Part shown: in pieces, positions 7,154-53,320 of the stretch
Numbering within the stretch: position 1 is the first letter of the stretch
Layout: the number at the start of each line of letters is the position of its first letter
Program-made: the position numbers and the translations under genes
NCBI GenBank assembly: GCA_041678665.1
Contig: JBAYNU010000001.1
Location: 80,996 to 144,995, forward strand
From: Candidatus Magasanikiibacteriota bacterium
GTDB lineage: Bacteria; Patescibacteriota; Patescibacteriia; Magasanikbacterales; GWA2-37-8
Direction of reading: 5' to 3'
Length of the DNA: 64,000 nucleotides
The notes under the pieces: model-generated
Seen by the model: the letters and a program-made list of their open reading frames with translations, nothing else
The model's database searches: none
Told to the model about the DNA's origin: nothing

Positions 7154-10105
7154 TTACTTACTAACAGCGAATTCACTCACCCACCCCAAAAACTTATCAA
7201 AATTTTTCTGGTCGCCTTGGAACTCAATGATTTTGTCGGTATTTTTTAGACCATTGGGATAAACTTCCAGCACATCATATTTATTTTCACCGGTTTTTAA
7301 ATCCGTATCCGACAGCCTACGCGCGCTGTAATTATAAAATTCGGTGGTGGTAATAGTTGCTTCCGGCACCGGATGACCCATTTTTTGTACAAACACCATA
7401 AAATATTCCTTACCATCGGCCGACGCGAATTTCACCCCATCTTCCCAATGGCTCACTTGCCAAGAGCGCGGATATTTTATAGCCATCTTTACAAAACTAT
7501 CTTCATTATAAGTGGTTTCGCCGGTTTGCACTTGCGCCAATTTCGCATCTAACTCCGCCCGGATTCTATCTTCGGCTGTTCCCAAATCACTCACCACTTT
7601 TGCCTTAAAATCATCAAGCATCGCCTGCTGATTAATCGCCTGACAAGTATAACCCGAAAGGCCAAGCACGAGCCCCAAGACGCCAAAAATTAAAAGTAAT
7701 TTGGAAGCCATAGCAACATTAAATTTAGAAGTAAATTTGGTACCAAGTTTCTTTTCCATATCAGCAATACGTTGTCTGGTTTTAAGAACGGTGTCGGGAT
7801 TGAGAGATATACTATCTATCCCCTCTTGCACCAAAAATTCGGCAAATTCGGGATAGTCGCTGGGCGCTTGTCCGCAAATTCCTACCTTGCGACCATGTTT
7901 GTGGGCGGTGCGGATAACATCGCGAATTAATTTTTTTACGGCCGCATTTTTTTCGTCATATACATGACTGACGAGCGCGCTATCGCGATCCACTCCAAGT
8001 GTAAGCTGGGTTAGATCGTTACTGCCAATACTAAACCCATCAAAAATTTCACTAAACTCATCGGCCAAAATCACATTGCTGGGAATTTCGCACATTACAT
8101 AAACCTGCAAACCATTTTTGCCCCGCTCCAAACCAAATTCTTTCATGGTCGCCAAAACTTTTTTACCTTCTTCTACGGTGCGACAAAACGGCACCATCAC
8201 AATGACATTTTTTAGTCCCCAATGCTCACGCACTTTTTTGATTGCCTCACACTCCAATTTAAACCCGGGCTTATAAGCCGGATCATAATAACGCGAAGCC
8301 CCCCGCCAGCCGATCATGGGGTTTTCTTCTTTGGGTTCATAATCATGCCCGCCAATTAAAGTGGCATATTCATTAGTTTTAAAATCCGACAAACGCACGA
8401 TCACATCACTCGGCGCAAAAGCCGTGGCGATAAAAGCAATACCTTCGGCCAACTTATCTACACAAAATTGTGATTTGTTATCGTAACCAATAGTCAACTC
8501 GTCAATTTTATTCCTTACTCCTTTATCCTTAATCCTTTCGTAGTTCACCAAAGCCATTGGATGGATCTTGATAAAATTGGTAAAAATAAATTCCTCGCGC
8601 GCCAGCCCCACCCCGCCATTGGGAATGGCAGCCAGTGAAAATGCGCTATCCGGATCGCCCACATTCATCATGATTTTGGTACGCGTGGATTTGATTTGTT
8701 TGATCTCGTGCTTTTCCACCTCAAACGGCAAAAGCCCTTTATACACATACCCCACTTCACCCTGCGCGCACGACACTGTTACCGGCTCGCCGGCATAAAC
8801 AAGCTTGCGCGCGCCTTTGGCGCCCACAATACATGGTATTCCCAGCTCGCGACTCACAATCGCCGCATGGCTGGTCTTGCCACCCTGCTCGGTAACAATG
8901 GCCGCGGCAATGCGCATAATGGGCTCCCAATCGGGGTCGGTAATGCGAGTAATCAAAACTTCGCCCGGCTTGAATTGTTTCATTTGTTTGGGCGAGTTAA
9001 TCACCCGCGCGCGACCATGACCAATTTTTTGCCCCACACTCGCGCCGGTCACTAATACTTTGCCTGCCTCCTTGGATTTGAGACGATAATTTTCAATTAC
9101 ATTAATTTTTGCTTGTGATTTTACGGTTTCTCCACGTGCTTGTACGATAAATAATTTTTTGGTTCTGCCATCGAGCGCCCATTCAATATCCATGGCATGG
9201 CCATAATGCTCTTCGATAATCATGCCCCACTTGGCCAGTTGAATAACTTGATCTTCGGTAAGGCAATATTGTTTTCGATCCGACACTGCCACCTTTTCTT
9301 GTTTGGTACCTACCTTACCATAAATTAACTTGACCTCTTTTGAGCCCAACCGTCGGCTAATAATTGATTTAAAACCTTTTTTCGCGCCTTCTTTATATAC
9401 ATAATACTGATCCGGCACTACCCGGCCCTTAACCACATATTCACCCAAACCATAGGCGGCGTTGATTAAAACCACGCCTTTAAAACCGGATTCGGTATCC
9501 AAAGTAAACATTACGCCCGAAGCGCCCATATCGGAACGTACCATCTCTTGCACGCAAACCGAAAGCGCTACCGCCGTATGCTCAAAACCCTTGGCCTCGC
9601 GATAAGAAATCGCACGGTCGGTAAATAGCGAAGCAACGCATTTTTTGCAGGCTTCGAGCAATTCTTTTTCGCCACGGACATTAAGATAGGTTTCTTGTTG
9701 TCCGGCAAAACTGGCATCAGGCAAATCTTCGGCGGTAGCCGAAGATCGCACCGCCACATCGATGGGCTTATTCTTACCAAGTTTTTTATAATTTTTAAAA
9801 ATCTCTTCTTCTATTTCTTTGGGGAATTCGGCGGACAAAACCATCTTACGCACCTTCTCACCGGCAACAGATAGCGCGCGTAAATTTTTCACATCCAATC
9901 CTTTGAGCGCTTCTTTGATTTTTTTATCCAATTTATTTTCTTTGATAAACACCCAATAGGCATCACTGGTCAACGCAAAACCATTGGGTACAGGGACACC
10001 CTTTTTAGCCAACTTAGCATACATCTCGCCGAGTGAAGCGTTTTTCCCGCCCACACTAGGAATATCTTTGATTGTCAGATCTTTAAACCAACGGACGAAG
10101 TTCAT
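7154..10105 (-). CDS. ppsA: Phosphoenolpyruvate synthase (pyruvate, water dikinase) with a ~185-aa C-terminal extension
   Basis: Collinear with PpsA over ~790 aa (VGGKNASLGEM, RSSATAEDLPDASFAGQQETYLNV, TDPDWEPIM, GGKTSHAAIVSRELGIPCIVG, IVRLSDFKTNEYA, GFSIGSNDLTQL, GICGQAPSD). It then continues in-frame through MASKLLLIFGVLGLVLGLSGYTCQA... (signal-peptide/TM-like) and ~170 further residues. Confidence 0.9.
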   Translation of the reverse strand: MNFVRWFKDLTIKDIPSVGGKNASLGEMYAKLAKKGVPVPNGFALTSDAYWVFIKENKLDKKIKEALKGLDVKNLRALSVAGEKVRKMVLSAEFPKEIEEEIFKNYKKLGKNKPIDVAVRSSATAEDLPDASFAGQQETYLNVRGEKELLEACKKCVASLFTDRAISYREAKGFEHTAVALSVCVQEMVRSDMGASGVMFTLDTESGFKGVVLINAAYGLGEYVVKGRVVPDQYYVYKEGAKKGFKSIISRRLGSKEVKLIYGKVGTKQEKVAVSDRKQYCLTEDQVIQLAKWGMIIEEHYGHAMDIEWALDGRTKKLFIVQARGETVKSQAKINVIENYRLKSKEAGKVLVTGASVGQKIGHGRARVINSPKQMKQFKPGEVLITRITDPDWEPIMRIAAAIVTEQGGKTSHAAIVSRELGIPCIVGAKGARKLVYAGEPVTVSCAQGEVGYVYKGLLPFEVEKHEIKQIKSTRTKIMMNVGDPDSAFSLAAIPNGGVGLAREEFIFTNFIKIHPMALVNYERIKDKGVRNKIDELTIGYDNKSQFCVDKLAEGIAFIATAFAPSDVIVRLSDFKTNEYATLIGGHDYEPKEENPMIGWRGASRYYDPAYKPGFKLECEAIKKVREHWGLKNVIVMVPFCRTVEEGKKVLATMKEFGLERGKNGLQVYVMCEIPSNVILADEFSEIFDGFSIGSNDLTQLTLGVDRDSALVSHVYDEKNAAVKKLIRDVIRTAHKHGRKVGICGQAPSDYPEFAEFLVQEGIDSISLNPDTVLKTRQRIADMEKKLGTKFTSKFNVAMASKLLLIFGVLGLVLGLSGYTCQAINQQAMLDDFKAKVVSDLGTAEDRIRAELDAKLAQVQTGETTYNEDSFVKMAIKYPRSWQVSHWEDGVKFASADGKEYFMVFVQKMGHPVPEATITTTEFYNYSARRLSDTDLKTGENKYDVLEVYPNGLKNTDKIIEFQGDQKNFDKFLGWVSEFAVSK
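8505..8540. repeat. Short AG-rich repeat (AAAGGAGTAAGGAATAAA family) inside ppsA, in-frame
   Basis: attttattccttactcctttatccttaatcc encodes KDKGVRNK on the coding strand. Near-identical copies are at 38581..38620 (cca) and 58990..59060 (intergenic). Confidence 0.6.
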
Positions 10106-11713: not shown

Positions 11714-11843
11714 TGTCATTCCGAGCGGAACGAAGTGGAGTCGAGGAATCCCTTTCCGTCAAAGGCGGACCCGCCTATGGCGGGAAACTACTACATCAAA
11801 GGGATCCTTCGGCTTCGCCCTTCGGGCTCCGCTCAGGATGACA
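11714..11843. repeat. TGTCAT-type palindromic repeat, long variant, filling the GT4-tpiA spacer
   Basis: TGTCATTCCGAGCGGAACGAAG...GGAATCCC ... GGGATCCTTCGGCTTCGCC...GCTCAGGATGACA, with an internal CGGACCCGCC-tatg-GCGGG hairpin. Confidence 0.8.
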
Positions 11844-12627: not shown

Positions 12628-12702
12628 TGTCATCCTGAGGCGTAGCCGAAGGATCCCTTGAATCGTGAACGGAAGGGATTCTTCGCTCCGCTCAGAATGA
12701 CA
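12628..12702. repeat. TGTCAT-type palindromic repeat (type I arms) between tpiA and the M16 peptidase
   Basis: TGTCATCCTGAGGCGTAGCCGAAGGATCCC ... GGAAGGGATTCTTCGCTCCGCTCAGAATGACA. Confidence 0.8.
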
Positions 12703-12706
12703 ATTG

Positions 12707-14038
12707 TTAATTGAGTAATTTAATGATCTCATTTTCTTTTGCGCTACCAATTACCGCCAGGCGCGCCTCATTCCAAACAAACAGTTTCTTGGCTAATTTC
12801 AAAACATCGCCAGTGGTAACTTTTTTAATTTTTTGGAGCACCTGTTCGTAGGTTTCAATTTTTTTACTAAACCAAAATTGTTTGGCAAACCAATCGGCCA
12901 CGGCATTGCTTTCTTCCATTCCCAAAACCATCCGACCGGAAAAATTGGATTTGGCTTCGTGTAACTCTTTATCCGAAACTGGCTTAGTGGCTATCTTGTT
13001 CAGCTCTTCTTTTATTACTGCCACCGCCTCATCAAGACGAGCCGGATCCAAACCAGCCTGAATCTGCGCTGTGCCTACATCGCGAAAACTATTGCCCCCA
13101 GTATGAATCATATAGCACAGACCCCGTTTATTGCGCACTTCTTCAAATAGACGCGAACTCATCGTCCCTCCCAAAATATTTAATAAAACCGATTGGGCAT
13201 AACGGTCGGGATGGTTGTGTGGTAGACCATGAAAACCCAAAATTAGATGGGTTTGATCGAGCGGCTTTTCTTTGTTTATTATTCTTTTTTTAAGCGCGCA
13301 ATTTTGTGGCCAAGAAAATTTAGCAAATTTCTTATAATCAAATCTTACTCTGTCATCCCCATGAAAGTGGGGATCTGCCCTGTTGAGTCGCTGATCCCGA
13401 TTTTCATCGGGATGACAACGCTCAAAATATTTCAAATTTTTTGGTAATTTCTTTTTATCCACATCGCCTGCTACCACCAACACCATATTACTCGGCTGAT
13501 AAGCCGCCTTGTAATAATTTACTAAATCTATGCGAGTTAGAGCACGAACACTACTTACGGTACCACCAACATCTATCCCCAAAGTATTACCGCCAAAAAC
13601 TACTTCATCAAACAACGAATCAATCTTCATGGTAGGATTATCATCGTACATACGCAGCTCCTCGACAATCACGCCTTTTTCTTTTTCAATTTCTGATTCA
13701 TTCATTAAAGAATTAAACAACATATCCGACAGCATATCAAAAGCCAACTCACTCTGTGCCCCATCAATTTTAATATAATAACCAGTGTGATCTTTGGAAG
13801 TGTAAGCATTATATTCCGCGCCGGCCGCGTCAAGCTCGCGCGAAATTGCCTGCGTATTAGGTCGACGCTTAGTGCCCTTGAACATCATATGCTCGATAAA
13901 ATGTGAGCCACCGGAAAGCGCCGGCATTTCATAACGCGAACCAACCGGAAACAAAGCCAGCACGGTAGTTGCTTTCGTGCCGGCCACAGGAACGGTAATT
14001 AGACTGATGCCATTTTTTAACTTACTTAACTGATACAT
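12707..14038 (-). CDS. M16 (pitrilysin/insulinase) family zinc peptidase
   Basis: 443 aa. N-terminal HFIEHMMFKGT (HxxEH zinc motif) and the two-domain M16 layout. Contains one in-frame repeat insertion (see 13351..13417). Confidence 0.8.
   Translation of the reverse strand: MYQLSKLKNGISLITVPVAGTKATTVLALFPVGSRYEMPALSGGSHFIEHMMFKGTKRRPNTQAISRELDAAGAEYNAYTSKDHTGYYIKIDGAQSELAFDMLSDMLFNSLMNESEIEKEKGVIVEELRMYDDNPTMKIDSLFDEVVFGGNTLGIDVGGTVSSVRALTRIDLVNYYKAAYQPSNMVLVVAGDVDKKKLPKNLKYFERCHPDENRDQRLNRADPHFHGDDRVRFDYKKFAKFSWPQNCALKKRIINKEKPLDQTHLILGFHGLPHNHPDRYAQSVLLNILGGTMSSRLFEEVRNKRGLCYMIHTGGNSFRDVGTAQIQAGLDPARLDEAVAVIKEELNKIATKPVSDKELHEAKSNFSGRMVLGMEESNAVADWFAKQFWFSKKIETYEQVLQKIKKVTTGDVLKLAKKLFVWNEARLAVIGSAKENEIIKLLN
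13351..13417. repeat. TGTCAT-type repeat, type II (GAAA-tetraloop hairpin arms), in-frame inside the M16 peptidase
   Basis: TGTCATCCCCATGAAAGTGGGGATC ... GATCCCGATTTTCATCGGGATGACA. Translated within the ORF as ...CHPDENRDQRLNRADPHFHGDDR... Confidence 0.75.
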
Positions 14039-18916: not shown

Positions 18917-19930
18917 TTACTTCGTCGCCATAATACTTCTTTTATAATTTTCTAAATTCTCCAGCGCAATTCCTGTACCTTTGGCTACACACAATTGTGG
19001 CTCTTCGGCTATGTAAGTAGGTACTCCAGTAGCTTGGGCAATCAATTCATTAATATTACGCAGTTGAGCAGAACCCCCAGTAACAATAATACCCTTATCC
19101 ATCACGTCCGCCGAAAGCTCCGGCGGAGTCTGATTCAGGACTTCCTTTACAGCATCAATAAGTAAACCCAAATCATGCTGTAAAGCTTCGGTAATGTCAT
19201 CAGAGTTAACAGTAATAATCCGCGGTAAACCGGTTACCATATCACGACCCTTAATCTCTACCGTTAATGGTTTATCCATATATAAGACGGAACCAACTTT
19301 AATCTTTATCTCTTCGGCGCTGCGCTCGCCCAAAGCCACATTGTATTTATGACGAACATAATCAACAATAGATTGATCAAACTTATTGCCACCAACTCGA
19401 ACTGATCCCCAAGCCACGATACCACCCAAAGAAATAACTGCTATTTCAGCCTTACCGCCACCGATATCTATCACCAAATGTCCAGCGGCAGCCCCAATCG
19501 GAATATCCGCCCCAATCGCGGCTACGATCGGTTGCTTAATAATATAAGCCGCACGCGCGCCAGCCGCCAAGGTAGCATCAATCACCGCTCTTCTTTCTGT
19601 GGAAGTAACTCCGGCGGGCACGGCAATCATCACTTCTGGCCTAAACAAGCGCATGCCGCCTAAGGCTTTATTAATAAAGTACCTAAGCATCGCTTCGGTA
19701 ATATGATAGTTAGCAATTACCCCCTCTTTTACCGGACGTTGAGCGATAATCGTATCGGGAGTGCGGCCAATCATATCCTTGGCTTCAAAACCAACCGCCA
19801 ATACCTTACCATCAGACTTAGACAAGGCTACCACGCTGGGTTCGTTGACTATGATTCCTTTCTTGGAAACATAAACTAAAACGTTATTTGATCCCAGATC
19901 AATTCCAATTTTTTTGACAAACATAAACAA
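18917..19930 (-). CDS. mreB: Rod-shape-determining actin homologue MreB
   Basis: IGIDLGSNNVLVYV, the actin-fold phosphate loops and IVTGGSAQL match MreB. The ORF-track start is a TTG; the likely true start is the ATG at 19922..19924 (MFVKKIGIDLG). Confidence 0.9.
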   Translation of the reverse strand: MFMFVKKIGIDLGSNNVLVYVSKKGIIVNEPSVVALSKSDGKVLAVGFEAKDMIGRTPDTIIAQRPVKEGVIANYHITEAMLRYFINKALGGMRLFRPEVMIAVPAGVTSTERRAVIDATLAAGARAAYIIKQPIVAAIGADIPIGAAAGHLVIDIGGGKAEIAVISLGGIVAWGSVRVGGNKFDQSIVDYVRHKYNVALGERSAEEIKIKVGSVLYMDKPLTVEIKGRDMVTGLPRIITVNSDDITEALQHDLGLLIDAVKEVLNQTPPELSADVMDKGIIVTGGSAQLRNINELIAQATGVPTYIAEEPQLCVAKGTGIALENLENYKRSIMATK

Positions 19931-19999
19931 TCGTTAAAACATAAAAACATTAAAACATAAAAACAAACCACCTATTTACTGCCCTTATGTTCTAGCGTT
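19931..19999. repeat. Leader repeat with tandem ATGTTTT(A/T)A units immediately upstream of mreB
   Basis: The minus-strand reading ends ...tgtttttatgttttaatgtttttatgttttaacgattgtttATG. It shares aatattaaaac and the (ATGTTTTNA)n block with 34453..34527. Confidence 0.55.
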
Positions 20000-33216: not shown

Positions 33217-34452
33217 CTACTCGTATCTTAGCGCCTCAATCGGATCAAGCTTGGCGGCGCGTTTGGCCGGGGAAATTCCAAAAATCAAACCTACACCGAC
33301 CGACACTAACACCCCCATCACAATTGAAGAAAATGAAACAGAAAAATCCCAGCTATAACCCATGCCCTGCGCCACTTTGGCCACGGTGTAAGAAATTAAA
33401 ATGCCCAAAATAATTCCAATCACCCCACCGATAGAGGTAATCATGATTGACTCTACCAAAAATTGCGAAGTAATATTTTTATTCTTCGCCCCCACTGCTT
33501 TGCGTAATCCTATTTCACGCGTGCGTTCCTGCACAGCCGCAAGCATAATATTCATAATGCCAATTCCGCCCACAATAAGAGCGATCGCCGCTACCGCCGC
33601 CAGAAACATCTTGAGGGCATTGGTTATAGAAGTTATGGCATCCAAACTCTGTGCCATTGAACGCACCGAAAAATCATCATCTTTGGCATTTTCAATCTTA
33701 TGTCTTTCGCGTAAAATAACCTTGGCATCTTCCATGGCCGAATTAACATTGTCGCCAGTGTCAACTTTAAGCCGCGCAAAACTAATATGGTTTATTCCAA
33801 GTAATAACTTTTGTGCCGTATTAAGTGGCACAAAAATTTGGTCATCCTGATTTTGCATACCACTACTACCACGCGCCTTCATCACTCCGACAATATTAAA
33901 AACGGTTTTTTTAATTTTAATATCCTGTCCCAGGGGATTCTGATCGCTAAATAAGTTTTTAGCTACCGTACTACCAATTACCGCTACTCGCGCTACACTC
34001 CTATCCTCATCCTCGGTAAAAAATCTTCCTACTCCAATAGACGCGTCTTCCACATCCGGATATTGACCGGATACACCAGTAAAATTGGTATCGGTTTTTT
34101 GATCGCCCCAGGTGATGGTATCAGTCCCTTTTACATAACCGGTCGCCGCCAAAATATGCGGGTTATTTTTTGTCACCGCCACTATATCGCTTTCTTTAAG
34201 AGTGGTAATTACAATCCCCATAACCGAAGCTGGGGGGCCTTTTTCATCCGAAGCACCGGGTAAAATACCAATAAGATTGGAACCCATGCTTTTCACTTGA
34301 TTAATAATCAAACTCTGCGCCCCTGCTCCCACTGACATCACAATAATCACAGCCATTACGCCAATAATAATTCCGAGCATCGTTAAAAATGATCGAACCT
34401 TATTGCGCCCGATTACATGCCAGACACTGTGAATTTCTTGAAGTAAGTTCAT
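33217..34452 (-). CDS. ABC transporter permease, MacB/FtsX family (first permease)
   Basis: 411 aa, same architecture as the downstream paralogue. Confidence 0.8.
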   Translation of the reverse strand: MNLLQEIHSVWHVIGRNKVRSFLTMLGIIIGVMAVIIVMSVGAGAQSLIINQVKSMGSNLIGILPGASDEKGPPASVMGIVITTLKESDIVAVTKNNPHILAATGYVKGTDTITWGDQKTDTNFTGVSGQYPDVEDASIGVGRFFTEDEDRSVARVAVIGSTVAKNLFSDQNPLGQDIKIKKTVFNIVGVMKARGSSGMQNQDDQIFVPLNTAQKLLLGINHISFARLKVDTGDNVNSAMEDAKVILRERHKIENAKDDDFSVRSMAQSLDAITSITNALKMFLAAVAAIALIVGGIGIMNIMLAAVQERTREIGLRKAVGAKNKNITSQFLVESIMITSIGGVIGIILGILISYTVAKVAQGMGYSWDFSVSFSSIVMGVLVSVGVGLIFGISPAKRAAKLDPIEALRYE

Positions 34453-34527
34453 GAAAACATTAAAACATCAAAACATTAAAACAATTTCTATTTGTTTTAA
34501 TATTCTTGTGTTCTCGTGCTTTAACGA
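34453..34527. repeat. Leader repeat with tandem ATGTTTTNA units immediately upstream of the first permease
   Basis: The minus-strand reading ends ...aatattaaaacaaatagaaattgttttaatgttttgatgttttaatgttttcATG. Same family as 19931..19999. Confidence 0.55.
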
Positions 34528-35247
34528 TTATTTCACCAGCTCACTCGCTCCTTTTGCGATTTGTCGATTAATCACCTGCTCATCACTTTCAATCACACCA
34601 TCACGAATACGTAATATTCTTTTGGCATGCTCGGCGGTATAGCGTTCGTGAGTAACCAAAATTATCGTGTGTCCACTTTCATTCAAATCTTGCAAAATTT
34701 TCATCACCGCGAGACCGGATTTGGAATCCAAATTGCCAGTCGGCTCATCGGCAAAAATTACTTTGGGATCGTTCACTAATGCCCGGGCGATCGCCACGCG
34801 CTGTTTTTCACCACCCGAAAGCTGACTAGTGTAATAATTCAACCGATGCTCAAGTCCAACAGAAATTAATGCTCGTTTCGCTTTAAAATTACGCGCAGTT
34901 TCACTGTCACCTGTATAGACTAAAGGTAAAGCCACGTTTTCCATCACCGTGGTCCGTGGCAAAAGATTAAACGCTTGAAACACAAACCCGACTGCCTTGC
35001 TACGCATCTCCGCTAGCTCATCATCAGTGAGTTCGTTTACTTTCTTATCATCAAATAAATACTCGCCACAACTAGGCTTATCCATAAAACTCAAAATATG
35101 CATGAGAGTTGACTTACCTGAACCAGATGGCCCCATAATCGCCACAAATTCACCCTTTTCAATCTTAAAATTCAAATCATGAAGCACGGGTGTTTCCACC
35201 TCTCCGCTCACATAGGTTTTACAGAGATCTTTAATACTAATTAACAT
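34528..35247 (-). CDS. ABC transporter ATP-binding protein (MacB/LolD-like)
   Basis: Walker [11 protein letters not shown]-loop, signature [15 protein letters not shown], Walker [13 protein letters not shown]-loop. Confidence 0.9.
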
Positions 35248-35295
35248 ATTTGGTAAATTGCTAAATTTCTATTTTAAACAATTTAATAATTTATT

Positions 35296-37020
35296 TTATT
35301 TAGTCCCCACAATCACTATGTCCCCTTCACTTAACCCTTCCAAAATTTCCACCTTACCGTCGTCAGCTTTGAGGCCAATCTGCACCGGCATATCTTTGGC
35401 TTCTTTGCCAATCAAAATTTTTACATACTTACCGTCGTTAGTGCGGACGGCGCGGGAGGGAACATACAATACTCCTTCGCGTTTTTCCGTCGCGATTGTC
35501 ACATTAGTGGTCATCCCAGTCTTGATTGGTTTATCGGTTTCGTCCAAAGATACTTTAATTTTATAATATACCACATCTTGAATTTCGGTGGAGGCTGGCT
35601 CAATGGAAATTACTTTACCGCCAAATTTTACATCGTCCCCAAAAGCATCCAAAGTAATAGCCACCGCATCACTCAAATTTAATTTAGACACATCCGTCTC
35701 TGGAATGTCTACCTCCACTTCAAAATGTGGAGTAATCATTTCAATGGCAATATCGTTGGCCGAAAGTAATTCACCAACTTTCTTATTTACTTTGGCTATC
35801 ACGCCATCAATCGGAGCACGCAAAACCGCCTTACCATAATTAGCTTGAGCTTGCGCCAAAGCCGCCCGCAAAGGAGCTAGATCCACTTCACGCATAGGCT
35901 CAGTTTTATTGTTGTAATTAGCCACAGCTTGATCGTATACCGCCTGTTTAATGGCAATTACACTACTAGCGGTTGCTTTAATATTTTCCAAATCACGCAC
36001 CGCTTTATCATAAGCAATCTGATAAGTAGTATAACTATTTTTAGCATCCGTTAAATCCTGCTTCTTGCCAATCAAAGTAGTATACTGGGTAGAAATAGCC
36101 GCCCGACTGGCTTCGATAACGGTTTTTTTAGCATCCAATGCTGTCTGAGTCAATGATCCTACCGGGGGTGTAGCGGCGAGCACATCAGAAACCTTAAATA
36201 ACAAAGCGCTCATTTGTTCTAAGCTGGAAATAGTTAAATCAATAGCTAAATCCACTGAGGCGTGATTACTGCTGGCAGTCAAAATTATCACTGCACTACG
36301 CGCTTCGGTACGAGCGTTCTTAGCTACCGAATATTGAGTACGCGCGCTATTCAAATAATTACTATTTAAGATGGATAAATAACCTTCAAAATCATCATTA
36401 CCCAAAATATTGTCAACTCCCAAAATATTATCCGCTTGAGTAAGTCCATCATCGAGCTTGGATAAAGTGGACTGCAAGGCAGCAACAATATTCTCATAGG
36501 CCTGACTTACAATTTGACTATTTTCTCCACCTTCCGCTAATTTTAAATTATTTTTAGCTGTTTCTACCGCGGATTCATATGAAGTGATGGAGTTGGCAGT
36601 GTCAGCCTTGGTTTTATTCAAATCAGCCAATGCCTGTTCGGCCAATGCTTTATAATAAGCCCTTTCTTGATCATTAGCGCCGGCAATTTTTTGATTCAAA
36701 TTAGCTTGAGCTTGTGCCACGGCAGCAGCAAGTTCGCTGGCACGCAAAGATGCTAAAAGCTGACCAATTTTAACAGCCTCACCTTCTTTTACTTTCACTT
36801 CACCCAAAGTACCGGCAGTCTCAAACCGTAAGGATAGGTCATTAGAAGATTGAATTTTGCCGGTAGCCTCCACTGTTTGTGCGATATCTCCACGCGCTAC
36901 AGTAAAGGTGTCGTAGTTGGGAGGAGTATTAGCTTTTTTATATTGACCATAACCAACCCAAACCGCGATCAAAACCACTATAGTAATAATCCAAAACTTT
37001 TTAGTTTTATAAAACAACAT
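35296..37020 (-). CDS. Periplasmic adaptor / membrane fusion protein (HlyD/MacA family) with long coiled-coil
   Basis: 574 aa. N-terminal TM, lipoyl/beta-barrel hallmarks (GKIQSSNDLSLRFETAGTLGEV..., IDGVIAKVN) and an unusually long Ala/Gln-rich alpha-hairpin. Confidence 0.8.
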   Translation of the reverse strand: MLFYKTKKFWIITIVVLIAVWVGYGQYKKANTPPNYDTFTVARGDIAQTVEATGKIQSSNDLSLRFETAGTLGEVKVKEGEAVKIGQLLASLRASELAAAVAQAQANLNQKIAGANDQERAYYKALAEQALADLNKTKADTANSITSYESAVETAKNNLKLAEGGENSQIVSQAYENIVAALQSTLSKLDDGLTQADNILGVDNILGNDDFEGYLSILNSNYLNSARTQYSVAKNARTEARSAVIILTASSNHASVDLAIDLTISSLEQMSALLFKVSDVLAATPPVGSLTQTALDAKKTVIEASRAAISTQYTTLIGKKQDLTDAKNSYTTYQIAYDKAVRDLENIKATASSVIAIKQAVYDQAVANYNNKTEPMREVDLAPLRAALAQAQANYGKAVLRAPIDGVIAKVNKKVGELLSANDIAIEMITPHFEVEVDIPETDVSKLNLSDAVAITLDAFGDDVKFGGKVISIEPASTEIQDVVYYKIKVSLDETDKPIKTGMTTNVTIATEKREGVLYVPSRAVRTNDGKYVKILIGKEAKDMPVQIGLKADDGKVEILEGLSEGDIVIVGTK

Positions 37021-37053: not shown

Positions 37054-37278
37054 TTATTTCTTAAGAGCCTTGGTAATTGACGCCATCATAATCGACATCA
37101 TTTTATCAGGTACTAAAACCAAAAAACCGTCATGCTCAAAAATGACAAAACGATCACCGGTTTTTATTTTTAAACTAGTACGCGCTTCTTTGGGTACAAC
37201 TATTTGCCCGCGCTCGCCCATGGTAGCCGACCCACATACGGCGCTAAATAGATGGCTGGATTTATGACAATTTTTCAT
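37054..37278 (-). CDS. AbrB/MazE/SpoVT-family DNA-binding protein (swapped-hairpin barrel)
   Basis: GQIVVPKEARTSLKIKTGDRFVIFEHDGFLVLVP is the AbrB-N fold signature. The probable true start is the internal ATG at 37219..37221 (56-aa product). Confidence 0.55.
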   Translation of the reverse strand: MKNCHKSSHLFSAVCGSATMGERGQIVVPKEARTSLKIKTGDRFVIFEHDGFLVLVPDKMMSIMMASITKALKK

Positions 37279-38863: not shown

Positions 38864-40057
38864 CTATTCTACAGTATTTAGAGCTAATTGTCCACACGCC
38901 GCCGCGATGTCTTGGCCCTGGGAGCGGCGAATGGTGGTGGTAAACCCACATTTCATTAGGCGCTTATGCCAGTGGTCGATGGTGGTTTCGCCCACAATGT
39001 CATTCCCGCGCAAGCGGGAATCTGCCATGTCGTTGCGCGGATCCCCGCTTTCGCGGGGATGACAAGTCGCCGGAGTGTTGAGTGGTATCAAATTTATCCT
39101 CACCTTGCCCAACTTACTCGCGAGCTTGATGAGAGCTTTCAAATGTTTCTCGCTATCATTTTCGCCCGGCACAATCGTATACTCCATTCCAATAAACTGC
39201 GTGCGACTGCTAAACCGCTCGTGATATTTTTTACTCCACTCAATCAAAAATTTAAGAAAATCCTTTTGATGCGATGGAATTAATTTTTTGCGTTCTTCTT
39301 CAATTGGATTATGAAGCGAAAGCGCAAACCGCACCGGCGGCCAATCTTTATCCACTACCATTTTTTCCATAACCGTTGGCACACCCACAGTGGACACGGT
39401 AATCTGGCGCGGGCCCATTTCGGTGTATTTTAAAATTATATTCAATGCCGCTTTGACATTTTCATAATTTAAAAGTGGCTCACCCTGACCCATCAGAACG
39501 ATGTTGGAAATTCGCTTGTCATTCTGAGCGGAGCGAGCGAAAGCGAGCGCAGTCGAAGAATCTAAATTGCGTTGCTTATCAGATCCTTCGACTCCATTCG
39601 CCTTCGGCTCATTTCGCTCAGGATGACAGTTTGACAAATATTGTTGCCAAAACCTCACCTGGTCCACAATTTCTTGCATCGTCAAATTACGTTTGAACCC
39701 CATCTTGCCGGTAGCGCAAAACGTGCAACCCATCGGACAACCAACTTGGGTAGAAATACAAATGGTATAGCGTTCGTCTGCTTCTCTGGTTAACTTTTTA
39801 TTTTCACGCCCCATTAGCACTGTTTCAATACAAGCGCCATCACTCAATTCCAACAACACCTTTTTTGTCCCGTCAATCTTACTTATCTGCATAGTTTTTT
39901 CTTTCGCTACCATCCACGGCTCGCCTTTTAATTTTTCCCGCAAATCTTTGGGCAAAGTGGTAATTTCAAAATACGAAGAAACGCCCGGAGTAAACCAAGC
40001 GCGATAAATTTGATCAAGCCGATATTTGGGTTGATTGTCTAAAAGCTGAGATAACAT
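38864..40057 (-). CDS. rlmN: Radical-SAM 23S rRNA/tRNA adenine C2-methyltransferase RlmN, carrying two in-frame repeat insertions
   Basis: GCPMGCTFCATG (CxxxCxxC), LMGQGEPLLNYENV and the C-terminal Cys region match RlmN/Cfr. Two TGTCAT-type repeats (38998..39064, 39517..39628) are translated in-frame. Confidence 0.8.
   Translation of the reverse strand: MLSQLLDNQPKYRLDQIYRAWFTPGVSSYFEITTLPKDLREKLKGEPWMVAKEKTMQISKIDGTKKVLLELSDGACIETVLMGRENKKLTREADERYTICISTQVGCPMGCTFCATGKMGFKRNLTMQEIVDQVRFWQQYLSNCHPERNEPKANGVEGSDKQRNLDSSTALAFARSAQNDKRISNIVLMGQGEPLLNYENVKAALNIILKYTEMGPRQITVSTVGVPTVMEKMVVDKDWPPVRFALSLHNPIEEERKKLIPSHQKDFLKFLIEWSKKYHERFSSRTQFIGMEYTIVPGENDSEKHLKALIKLASKLGKVRINLIPLNTPATCHPRESGDPRNDMADSRLRGNDIVGETTIDHWHKRLMKCGFTTTIRRSQGQDIAAACGQLALNTVE
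38998..39064. repeat. TGTCAT-type repeat, type II arms, in-frame in rlmN
   Basis: TGTCATTCCCGCGCAAGCGGGAATC ... GGATCCCCGCTTTCGCGGGGATGACA, translated as ...CHPRESGDPRNDMADSRLRGND... Confidence 0.8.
39517..39628. repeat. TGTCAT-type repeat, long type I variant, in-frame in rlmN
   Basis: TGTCATTCTGAGCGGAGCGAGCGAAAGCGAGCGCAGTCGAAGAATC ... GATCCTTCGACTCCATTCGCCTTCGGCTCATTTCGCTCAGGATGACA. 112 nt. Translated as ...CHPERNEPKANGVEGSDKQRNLDSSTALAFARSAQNDK... Confidence 0.8.
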
Positions 40058-52416: not shown

Positions 52417-52426
52417 AATTTTAATA

Positions 52427-52495
52427 TGTCATTCCCGCGAAAGCGGGAATCTAAAGATTATCTTAAAGGGATTCTCCGCTTCACTCAGAATGACA
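52427..52495. repeat. TGTCAT-type repeat, hybrid (type II left arm, type I right arm), overlapping the 3' end of the rfbD-like gene
   Basis: TGTCATTCCCGCGAAAGCGGGAATC ... GGGATTCTCCGCTTCACTCAGAATGACA. The right arm encodes the C-terminal ...RCHSE-stop of ORF 52481..53320. Confidence 0.8.
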
Positions 52496-53320
52496 ACGCG
52501 TCGCATAATTTTTCATTGCCTCTTCCACTGCCTCCTCAACCGGACGCATCGCTATTCCCAACTTTGGCAGATTAACCGAAGTCATTACATTATTTGATCG
52601 CTTTTTGGCGGCGATGCCTAATTTCACCAAATCCTCTTCTTTTATCCATTCACACTGATGCTGGGAGTCAATATATTTTTCATAAAGCGCGATAATTTGT
52701 TTATGCGTGATTGATCCAGGATTGGTGCAATGAAAAATACCTTCGGCTTTTTTTTCTAATAACGCGCGGAATATCTTAATCATATCCGGCACGACGGTAA
52801 CGCTATTTTCTACGTCTACCACCCGAGAAAATTTGGATAACTTATCTATCAGGTTGCCGGGGAATAATCGATCATCAATCGGCAATCGAATGCGCGCGAC
52901 GGCGACATTGGACAACGTGGACAAAACTAAATCAGCCGCATATTTGGAACGCGTATAAACCGCCGTCGGATTGGCAAAATCATTTTCATCCCACGGACCG
53001 CCATGAGGCGAAGCACCATAAAAAATACAACCTGTACCCATGTGCAATAGGTACACTCCCCGTTTTTGACAAGCGCACGCGATGGTAATCGGCAGTACGG
53101 TGTTACCCTCAATAGTTTCCACCTGATGTGTTTCGCACCAATCGACATTGGGTTTGCCCACCACTCCGGCGGCATTCAACACCACATCGGGTCGATATTC
53201 ATCCAAAAGGGCCAAAACATCCGCCTCAGTTTGAATCTTTTTATCCGCGATAACCGAATCCGGCCACTCCTCATGACATCTTCCGCCCAGCCAACCTTTG
53301 CCGATAATTAAAATTTTCAT
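52481..53320 (-). CDS. rfbD: dTDP-4-dehydrorhamnose reductase-like NAD(P)-dependent sugar reductase/epimerase
   Basis: 279 aa. Short Rossmann N-terminus MKILIIGKGWLGG, catalytic YTRSK (YxxxK), RmlD-like size. Confidence 0.6.
   Translation of the reverse strand: MKILIIGKGWLGGRCHEEWPDSVIADKKIQTEADVLALLDEYRPDVVLNAAGVVGKPNVDWCETHQVETIEGNTVLPITIACACQKRGVYLLHMGTGCIFYGASPHGGPWDENDFANPTAVYTRSKYAADLVLSTLSNVAVARIRLPIDDRLFPGNLIDKLSKFSRVVDVENSVTVVPDMIKIFRALLEKKAEGIFHCTNPGSITHKQIIALYEKYIDSQHQCEWIKEEDLVKLGIAAKKRSNNVMTSVNLPKLGIAMRPVEEAVEEAMKNYATRCHSE

Follow-up and report, generated by a model that had tools for sequence, protein, structure and literature searches.

How does a conserved methyltransferase gene come to hold two palindromic repeats inside its reading frame, and does it still look like the gene of a working enzyme? 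The question is raised by rlmN in a 64,000-nucleotide stretch (hereafter the window) of contig JBAYNU010000001.1, assembly GCA_041678665.1, from a Candidatus Magasanikiibacteriota bacterium. The host is an uncultured groundwater bacterium of the Candidate Phyla Radiation (CPR; Patescibacteria), and rlmN is an essential-type rRNA/tRNA methyltransferase gene. The explanation that we favour, and hold to be likely, is that both repeats are tolerated in-frame dimers of repetitive extragenic palindromes (REPs), present as extra loops in a still functional RlmN. Two non-autonomous CGTC/TGTC-tagged hairpin repeats of the REP superfamily, to which Neisseria dRS3/NTS, the Rickettsia palindromic elements (RPEs) RPE-6 and RPE-4, and Ssn-related motifs (SRMs) belong, would have been incorporated into the coding sequence of rlmN and would be read through as surface loops of the enzyme.

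Two hairpin repeats in the rlmN reading frame

The gene and the two elements within it are as follows.

38864..40057, minus strand: rlmN, 397 uninterrupted codons, a radical-SAM methyltransferase of the RlmN/Cfr family
38998..39064 (67 nt): site-2 element, type II, TGTCAT...ATGACA, an inverted dimer with arms at 38998-39025 and 39037-39064
39517..39628 (112 nt): site-1 element, long type I, TGTCAT...ATGACA, an inverted dimer whose arms read TGTCATYCTGAGCG... and which holds additional internal hairpins

In each element, two short tagged hairpins (arms) stand in inverted orientation on either side of a short spacer. A type II arm reads TGTC-ATTCCCGC-GAAA-GCGGGAAT-C. Type I arms, the commoner type in this genome, read TGTCATYCTGAGCG...GRATC; they have a 5-bp foot, and their longer interior often holds further small hairpins. 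A reading made from the letters alone (the sequence-only reading) had placed two copies of a dispersed repeat with TGTCAT termini in an unbroken RlmN frame, and its coordinates proved exact. The window holds 18 copies of the terminus TGTCATYCYS (0.64 expected), and none of 100 shuffles reaches 18. The in-gene arms are 74-96% identical to other window copies, the upper value belonging to the left arm of the site-2 element, which is 96% identical to 52426-52452. Each element folds into a single long hairpin, at -42.9 kcal/mol for site 2 and -62.7 kcal/mol for site 1 (z = -8.2 in each case).

On the gene strand, the site-2 element reads in frame as CHPRESGDPRNDMADSRLRGND, which makes up RlmN residues ~331-352 and fills the loop after the strand 'RINLIPLN' (strand 319-325). 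The site-1 element reads as CHPERNEPKANGVEGSDKQRNLDSSTALAFARSAQND(K), residues ~143-180, between helix 127-143 and strand 183-188, the latter carrying GQGEP. From the general geometry of radical-SAM barrels, we take site 1 to be at a barrel strand's N-terminal end, on the cofactor-distal face. Two antisense open reading frames (ORFs) over the site-2 element, 38966..39283 and 38907..39062 (both plus strand), are spurious; their words VIPAQAGI...PAFAGMT and SFPRKRES arise from translation of the repeat in other frames. Similar peptide words occur in hypothetical proteins of many genomes.

The identity of the gene is supported by a Pfam Radical_SAM match (9.2e-14) and by a match to TIGR00048, the NCBIfam model of RlmN (E = 1.5e-73), ahead of the Cfr models (~1e-54). 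The 39517-39628 insert breaks the TIGR00048 match into two stretches, as it does every RlmN/Cfr profile match, and matches to Protein Data Bank chains (E. coli RlmN and one Cfr structure, E ~1e-41) again come in two stretches. A Candidatus Magasanikbacteria (CPR) record, a metagenome-assembled genome (MAG), holds an identical protein annotated RlmN. The radical-SAM CX3CX2C cluster is C107/C111/C114 in window RlmN numbering, the mechanistic cysteines C100 and C388 correspond to E. coli C118 and C355, and all of these are invariant columns in an alignment of 120 orthologues. Compared with the closest relative, L001, dN/dS is 0.13 over 366 codons, with dS at ~1.0 and near saturation. This is the pattern of a gene under purifying selection, and rlmN looks functional; the sequence-only reading had named decay to a pseudogene as a finding that would overturn it, and the intact frame, invariant cysteines and low dN/dS speak against such decay.

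An AlphaFold model of the window RlmN agrees with this picture. Its mean predicted local distance difference test score (pLDDT) is 88.3, the core is confident, and values below 70 are confined to residues ~141-180 and 331-356, that is, to both inserts (56-68 at site 1, ~48-67 at site 2). The core aligns with RlmN structures in Foldseek at target-normalised TM scores of 0.74-0.82. Modelling had been proposed as a check on whether the inserts fall in surface loops, and they are modelled as low-confidence loops outside the confident core.

The repeat family and its relatives

REPs tagged CGTC (TGTC or CCTC being allowed) have a short tail and form mostly inverted dimers; they lie mostly downstream of ORFs, with some copies intragenic, and are reported in five phyla, mostly in Alphaproteobacteria (PMC3733652). 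Family CGTC-1 has an 8-bp stem beginning with AT, a 4-nt loop and a tail that is mostly CCA (PMC3733652), and it has been equated with Neisseria dRS3 and R. conorii RPE-6, as CGTC-4 has with RPE-4 (Di Nocera, De Gregorio, Rocco 2013, PMC3733652). Both arms of the site-2 element begin with TGTC, a permitted form of the tag, and their stems and loops, ATTCCCGC-GCAA-GCGGGAAT and ATCCCCGC-GAAA-GCGGGGAT, show the 8-bp stem and 4-nt loop of CGTC-1. Their tails are CTG and CCG, against the consensus CCA. The published SRM search string, HGTCWYN(0-2)YYVSBRHN(0-5)WNVSBRGN(0-2)RNCYNB (PMC11893778), matches the window twice, at the two arms of this same element, with 0.08 matches expected from shuffles. 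The Neisseria NTS definition (CGTCATTCCCGCGMAVGCGGGAATCYRG, at most one mismatch; PMC11893778) is narrowly missed, with mismatches out of 28 numbering 2 in the arm at 38998, 2 in the arm at 52427 and 4 in the arm at 39064. The exact 25-mer TGTCATTCCCGCGNAAGCGGGAATC is present in at least 120 stretches of representative genomes from many phyla, among them several groups of CPR, a MAG of the Coxiellaceae and a Rickettsia endosymbiont, in which elements of 119-134 nt have it at their boundaries.

By its sequence, then, the 67-nt element pairs two CGTC/TGTC-tagged REPs of the CGTC-1 kind (dRS3/NTS, RPE-6, Ssn-related motif), and the published assignment places it in the same family as RPE-6. The sequence-only reading did not know the repeat from any described system; this part of it does not hold, as type II arms fit CGTC-1 (PMC3733652), match the SRM string (PMC11893778) and share peptide words with R. 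conorii, and both the phenomenon and the family have been described before. In-frame CGTC-1 inserts of R. conorii read CHSRESGDP, VIPAKAGI and DSRFRGND, and an insert in Micavibrio DNA polymerase I reads SIPAKAGIQTGPSMDSRLRGNA (PMC3733652, supplementary table). Words such as VIPAKAGI and DSRFRGND had no match in the main texts of the literature and were found in that supplementary table. No paper on these repeats in CPR was found in the literature searched, which is not proof of absence. The Coxiella elements QMITE1 and QMITE2 were considered and rejected; they are 150-400 bp with direct repeats, or GTAG REPs, and have a different structure.

Elsewhere in the window, most copies occupy short gaps just 3' of genes (infC, rplT, a 983-aa ORF, TIM, M16 and others), and the paired arms face in opposite directions, as in the CGTC-1 layout. 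Full dimers number seven, and three of ~10 loci in 64 kb lie in frame inside genes. The copies outside rlmN are listed here.

3068..3142: type I dimer in the intergenic gap immediately downstream of infC
3761..4058: three solo type I arms (3761, 3811, 4019) downstream of rplT
7079..7152 (terminus 7143): solo long type I arm directly adjoining the stop codon of ORF 7154..10105 (minus strand); its identity to the right arm of the site-1 element in rlmN is 88%
11714..11843: type I dimer of 130 nt, filling the gap between glycosyltransferase and TIM
12628..12702: type I dimer of 75 nt, filling the gap between TIM and the M16 peptidase; reverse complement of the 3068-3142 copy (89%)
13351..13417: type II variant, the third in-frame copy, inside the M16 (insulinase-family) peptidase ORF 12707..14038 (minus strand)
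52427..52495: hybrid dimer, its left arm of type II and its right arm of type I, at the RmlD-like ORF 52481..53320 (minus strand)

The copy in the M16 peptidase reads CHPDENRDQRLNRADPHFHGDD and stands where one M16 domain gives way to the other; in L002, the syntenic orthologue has no such copy. The RmlD-like ORF takes its last four codons and its stop (..CHSE*) from the right arm of the hybrid dimer, and the C-terminus of this reductase/epimerase is, on the evidence of its codons, repeat-derived. Because the hybrid joins both arm types, type I and type II are treated here as one system.

Comparison with better-known repeats places these elements more closely. They share with CGTC-1 REPs the tag, stem and loop, inverted and hybrid dimers, a position mostly just downstream of ORFs, and intragenic in-frame copies that encode 20-30 aa with the words CHSRESGDP, VIPAKAGI and DSRFRGND. 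They differ in their CPR/Patescibacteria host, in the rlmN target and in abundant type I arms that fall outside the four published stem/loop classes. RPEs are palindromic repeats that lie in frame in conserved housekeeping genes (Ogata et al. 2000, 2002, as summarised in PMC2229807 and PMC10969869). The likeness covers tolerated extra peptide segments in conserved genes, insert-free orthologues and several genes per genome; here the in-frame copies comprise the two rlmN sites and the M16 peptidase, with empty orthologues in L004 (rlmN) and L002 (M16). The RPE-like behaviour first suggested for rlmN, an in-frame palindrome in a conserved enzyme, is thereby upheld, insert-free RlmN orthologues being L004/P0014, P0005-P0008 and P0010. 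RPEs are described as restricted to Rickettsia, with decorated proteins that are expressed, whereas the present elements belong to a CPR host in which expression of the decorated protein is presumed. The classical RPE-1 type measures 105-146 bp and was considered Rickettsia-specific, whereas the elements here are REP dimers of 67-130 nt in an unrelated phylum. For an RPE in guanylate kinase, PMC2229807 reports that the insert-containing gene is translated and that the effect is neutral or slightly harmful.

The NTS/SRM system is matched in the SRM string of the site-2 arms and in a motif-ssn-motif architecture in the relative L003, whereas NTS are reported to be rarely intragenic (2% in N. meningitidis, PMC11893778), against the three of ~10 loci in the window. 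REPINs and BIMEs are likewise short tagged hairpins in inverted doublets that form one long hairpin, lack target duplication and have a single-copy cognate gene flanked by repeats; they differ in having a GTAG tag and a cognate RAYT, an HUH (Y1) tyrosine transposase rather than a GIY-YIG protein, and no RAYT was seen here. Bacterial MITEs (miniature transposable elements with inverted repeats; Correia, ERIC, RUP, QMITE1) are also small, non-autonomous, inverted-repeat elements that are sometimes fused to ORFs in frame. Typical MITEs differ in having TA or other target-site duplications and an origin in DDE insertion sequences; in a survey of 93 dimers, the elements studied here have the inverted termini but no target duplication beyond chance.

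Some other repeats and genes of the window were noted in passing. AT-rich direct and inverted repeats (326-415, 1266-1372, 1854-1937; units such as AAATTCCAAATTCAAAATAACAAATA) flank the tmRNA at 1941-2343 and are unrelated to the TGTC hairpins. Short arrays of 8-nt units, AAAACATT/AAAACATA, lie at 19926-19973 and 34436-34533, with an inverted partner at 34491-34533. A MazE-antitoxin-like ORF of 74 aa (window ~37054-37278; L128 12780-13004) stands directly after the CCA-adding enzyme gene, and L003 lacks it there.

Two RlmN loops across related lineages

If the inserts are repeats, orthologues from related genomes should tell how they came to lie where they do. The 120 closest RlmN proteins, all from CPR, served as the comparison set. 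Most are 344-348 aa long and carry no insert, and the modal loop length is 11 aa at site 1 and 16-17 aa at site 2; P0005-P0008 and P0010 have short loops. The window RlmN, with loops of 45 aa (site 1) and 35 aa (site 2), is the longest protein of the set. Expanded loops are nonetheless found in 22 orthologues at site 1, in 22 at site 2, in 36 at either site and in 8 at both. A count of repeat-derived loops by peptide pattern had a high background, as 34 of the 120 proteins match outside the loops, and the orthologues' DNA was relied on instead for that reason. Among six orthologues read as DNA, the expansions of five are recognisable elements or remnants, and the remaining one is empty at both sites. 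The elements vary in type and frame and may be full, solo, decayed or nested, as these loci illustrate.

L001 (P0002; closest relative, 82% identical over aligned positions): no element at site 1; full type I at site 2
L002: truncated type I at site 1; expansion with no recognisable element at site 2
L003: no recognisable element at site 1; decayed type II-like remnant at site 2
L004 (P0014): empty at site 1; empty at site 2
L005: full type II in another frame (VIPAQAGIH..DSCLRRND) at site 1; solo arm at site 2
L006: short type I at site 1; solo arm at site 2
L007: no element at site 1; type II nested in another element at site 2

At site 2, the type I element of L001 replaces the type II element of the window, with an identical right junction. 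At site 1, L002 shares both the left and the right junction with the window, and its element has in-frame deletions of 39, 9 and 9 nt. In L007 (10888-11024; P0021 site 2), a full type II dimer sits inside an element whose arms are of a third type, TGTCATTGCGAGGAGCGAAGCGACGCGGCAATCC ... GAATGACA; the whole is in frame, in a loop of 59 aa. Where the window has its 112-nt element, L001 (site 1, ~1590-1640) carries in frame a short GC hairpin unrelated to it, CCCCTCCTTACGGAGGAGGGG, which may be a remnant of an older element's interior. The rlmN of L004 (355-1365) is nearly identical to the window clade in its C-terminal two thirds and divergent in its N-terminal domain, and its RlmN is among the few orthologues with a PF21016 match; this gene may be a recombinant, or the contig chimeric.

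The sequence-only reading had predicted lineage-specific indels that coincide exactly with the repeat boundaries. The inserts are indeed repeat-derived and absent from many orthologues, and junctions are shared, between the window and L002 at site 1 and between the window and L001 at site 2. The expectation of a simple indel was not borne out, in that the same loops carry other types, relics and a nested insertion in other lineages. As far as the compared loci allow a judgement, the two RlmN loops are sites that have been occupied repeatedly, or renewed in place, and not sites of one simple lineage-specific indel each. Since junctions are shared with decayed elements and with elements of other types, a single old insertion followed by neutral decay does not explain the pattern.

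One alternative is that the repeats are now kept by selection, because their peptides, or the RNA or DNA hairpins within the gene, have gained a function such as an RNA- or partner-binding loop, a translational pause site, or an internal signal for recombination or Ssn cleavage. The window copies remain near-perfect hairpins (z ~-8) despite sharing junctions with decayed copies in relatives at ~70-82% protein identity, the same two loops are filled in many lineages, and the model predicts a helix within the site-1 insert (residues 167-178), all of which would fit such a role. Insert type, frame, length and sequence differ between lineages, however, many orthologues do without inserts, the elements decay in L002 and L003, and the pLDDT of the inserts is low. 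The same elements also occur in unrelated proteins and are mostly intergenic, and the guanylate kinase RPE is reported to be neutral or slightly harmful (PMC2229807). We regard a selected function of this kind as improbable.

Far less probable still are two readings under which the inserts would not decorate a working protein. The first takes rlmN to be a decaying pseudogene, or the repeats to be sites of misassembly, as the two insertions, an NCBIfam score below the equivalog cut-off and the reduced genomes of CPR might suggest. The 397 codons are nevertheless open through both elements, all invariant catalytic residues are present, the low dN/dS and the confident fold count against decay, and gene order (ATPase-rlmN-CCA enzyme) is conserved. 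The same 397-aa protein is encoded, identically, in the independent assembly Logan SRR6484787, which makes an assembly artefact unlikely, and this reading is largely refuted. The second, which we rate just as low, supposes that RNA splicing, ribosomal bypass or protein splicing removes the elements and leaves the protein unshaped by them. Very stable mRNA hairpins could in principle promote bypass, but Rfam finds only a tmRNA and two tRNAs in the whole window, with no match to a repeat family, intron or ribozyme, and 67 and 112 nt are far too small for group I/II introns or inteins. The frame is, moreover, open through three in-gene copies and through the orthologues, which would be needless if the elements were removed, and the insert-containing guanylate kinase gene is, according to PMC2229807, translated. 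That these are ordinary lineage-specific variable loops with a coincidental resemblance to repeats is scarcely credible and is refuted, for although both sites vary in length and some expansions (P0003, P0025, P0037) have no recognisable repeat, the window elements have both conserved termini, are 74-96% identical to other window copies, match a published 28-nt motif (0.08 expected) and fold at z ~-8.

Possible spread and renewal, and wider meaning

Tolerance of in-frame REP dimers thus remains the explanation that we favour for rlmN, and a mechanism may be sketched for it. The elements usually lie in short gaps downstream of genes. An intragenic copy would survive only where its net length keeps the frame, the frame used has no stop and the peptide is tolerated. 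Two RlmN loops appear to offer these conditions, namely the helix-to-strand connection before GQGEP and the loop after the strand 'NLIPxN', and the tolerance at these two places would be why related lineages carry different elements there. By cutting at the tag, the cognate GIY-YIG nuclease, Ssn, would set off copying from elements elsewhere, resulting in spread, replacement or renewal, and occupied sites would be hit again.

SsnA is a small single-domain GIY-YIG protein (cd10448) whose gene is typically flanked by the motif, and it cuts NTS/SRM as single-stranded DNA (2025, PMC11893778). In that paper CPR is not mentioned, and a role of Ssn in repeat spread is only a hypothesis. In L003, 14446-14822 consists of TGTCATCCCCGCGCAGGCGGGGATCCAG, a 90-aa GIY-YIG (Ssn-like) ORF (PF01541, 9.6e-15) and CTGGATCCCCGCCTGCGCGGGGATGACA. 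This unit, uncalled in the source annotation, lies 3.3 kb from the L003 rlmN, with a YknX-like gene on one side and an ABC-transporter gene on the other, and the type of its ends is that of the arms at rlmN site 2. In the window genome the orthologous gap (~35247-35296) is 48 nt and empty; the exact empty-site junction of the L003 unit cannot be defined by alignment to the window genome, the intergenic DNA being too diverged. Similar flanked GIY-YIG ORFs are found in L029 and L030. The short dimers look like gene-less derivatives of such a hairpin-GIY-YIG-hairpin unit. A 114-aa ORF amid the repeats of the window (3402..3746) was considered as an Ssn nuclease and rejected, being ribosomal protein L20.

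The survey of 93 dimers covered all fetched loci. Their length modulo 3 is uniform (31/28/34), so that the in-frame copies are a selected subset, and their flanks match as expected by chance, with no match in 69, a match of 1 nt in 19 and a match of at least 2 nt in 5. The lack of target duplication and of length bias makes a conventional DDE transposase unlikely, and no transposase was found. A 2-nt target duplication, prompted by three in-frame window copies with lengths of 1 modulo 3, was rejected, given orthologue elements of 74, 70, 84 and 68 nt and the 93 dimers without flank duplication. The sequence-only reading had called the repeats translated and had taken the locus as direct evidence that they are, or were, mobile and that they reshape proteins; this was too strong, as translation and mobility are both properties that we infer, and neither a target-site duplication nor a transposase was found.

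Several observations weigh against this account, in its family assignment, its view of the gene or its mechanism. Type I arms, including both arms of the site-1 element, fail the SRM string and the CGTC-1 stem/loop rule; they consist of TGTC and an ATYCT..AGRAT foot of 5 bp around an interior of at least 11 nt, against stems of 8-9 bp and loops of 4-5 nt in families 1-4, and what they have in common with the CGTC definition is limited to the tag, the initial AT and the C tail. They are counted as members because of the shared TGTCAT..GRATC tag and foot, the hybrid dimer at 52427-52495 and co-occurrence in other phyla, type I arms being found in Dehalococcoidia and Terriglobia loci as well. The TIGR00048 match of the gene scores 247.8 bits, below the curated cut-off of 290, and production of the insert-bearing RlmN is presumed. 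Where intact elements of the window have a junction in common with an element of a relative, the latter is decayed or of a different type, and neither conversion-based renewal nor recurrent insertion at one and the same nucleotide is proven. A GIY-YIG gene is absent from the 64-kb window (by regex and tblastn), and Ssn has been shown only to cut DNA, not to move it (PMC11893778). Mobility driven by Ssn is put forward here as a tentative possibility. Continual renewal of CPR TGTC-tagged dimers at occupied sites by Ssn-type cutting and copying is an unlikely, more speculative proposal; it is suggested by intact elements of different types that share exact junctions with decayed ones and by the nested insertion in L007.

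What is new here, beside a phenomenon and family already described, is the CPR host, the rlmN target, how densely copies occur inside genes, the variant arms of type I and the repeated occupation of two loops with shared junctions. Colonisation of conserved genes by in-frame hairpin repeats was for a long time regarded as peculiar to Rickettsia, and a few phyla were added later through tagged REPs; the findings extend it to the Candidate Phyla Radiation. For annotation, unusual loops of low complexity and small spurious ORFs (VIPAQAGI.., SFPRKRES.., ..FAGMT) in CPR proteins can be recognised as repeat-derived, and inserts of this kind push real orthologues below curated hidden Markov model cut-offs, as with TIGR00048 here. 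The recurrent use of two loops is a natural map of insertion-tolerant sites in RlmN, and the L003 hairpin-GIY-YIG-hairpin unit, beside short dimers whose ends are of the same type, lends itself to work on Ssn and repeat spread. If the renewal proposal were true, loops of essential proteins would be long-lived, self-renewing insertion hot spots, and such renewal would be a general driver of protein-loop expansions in CPR genomes.

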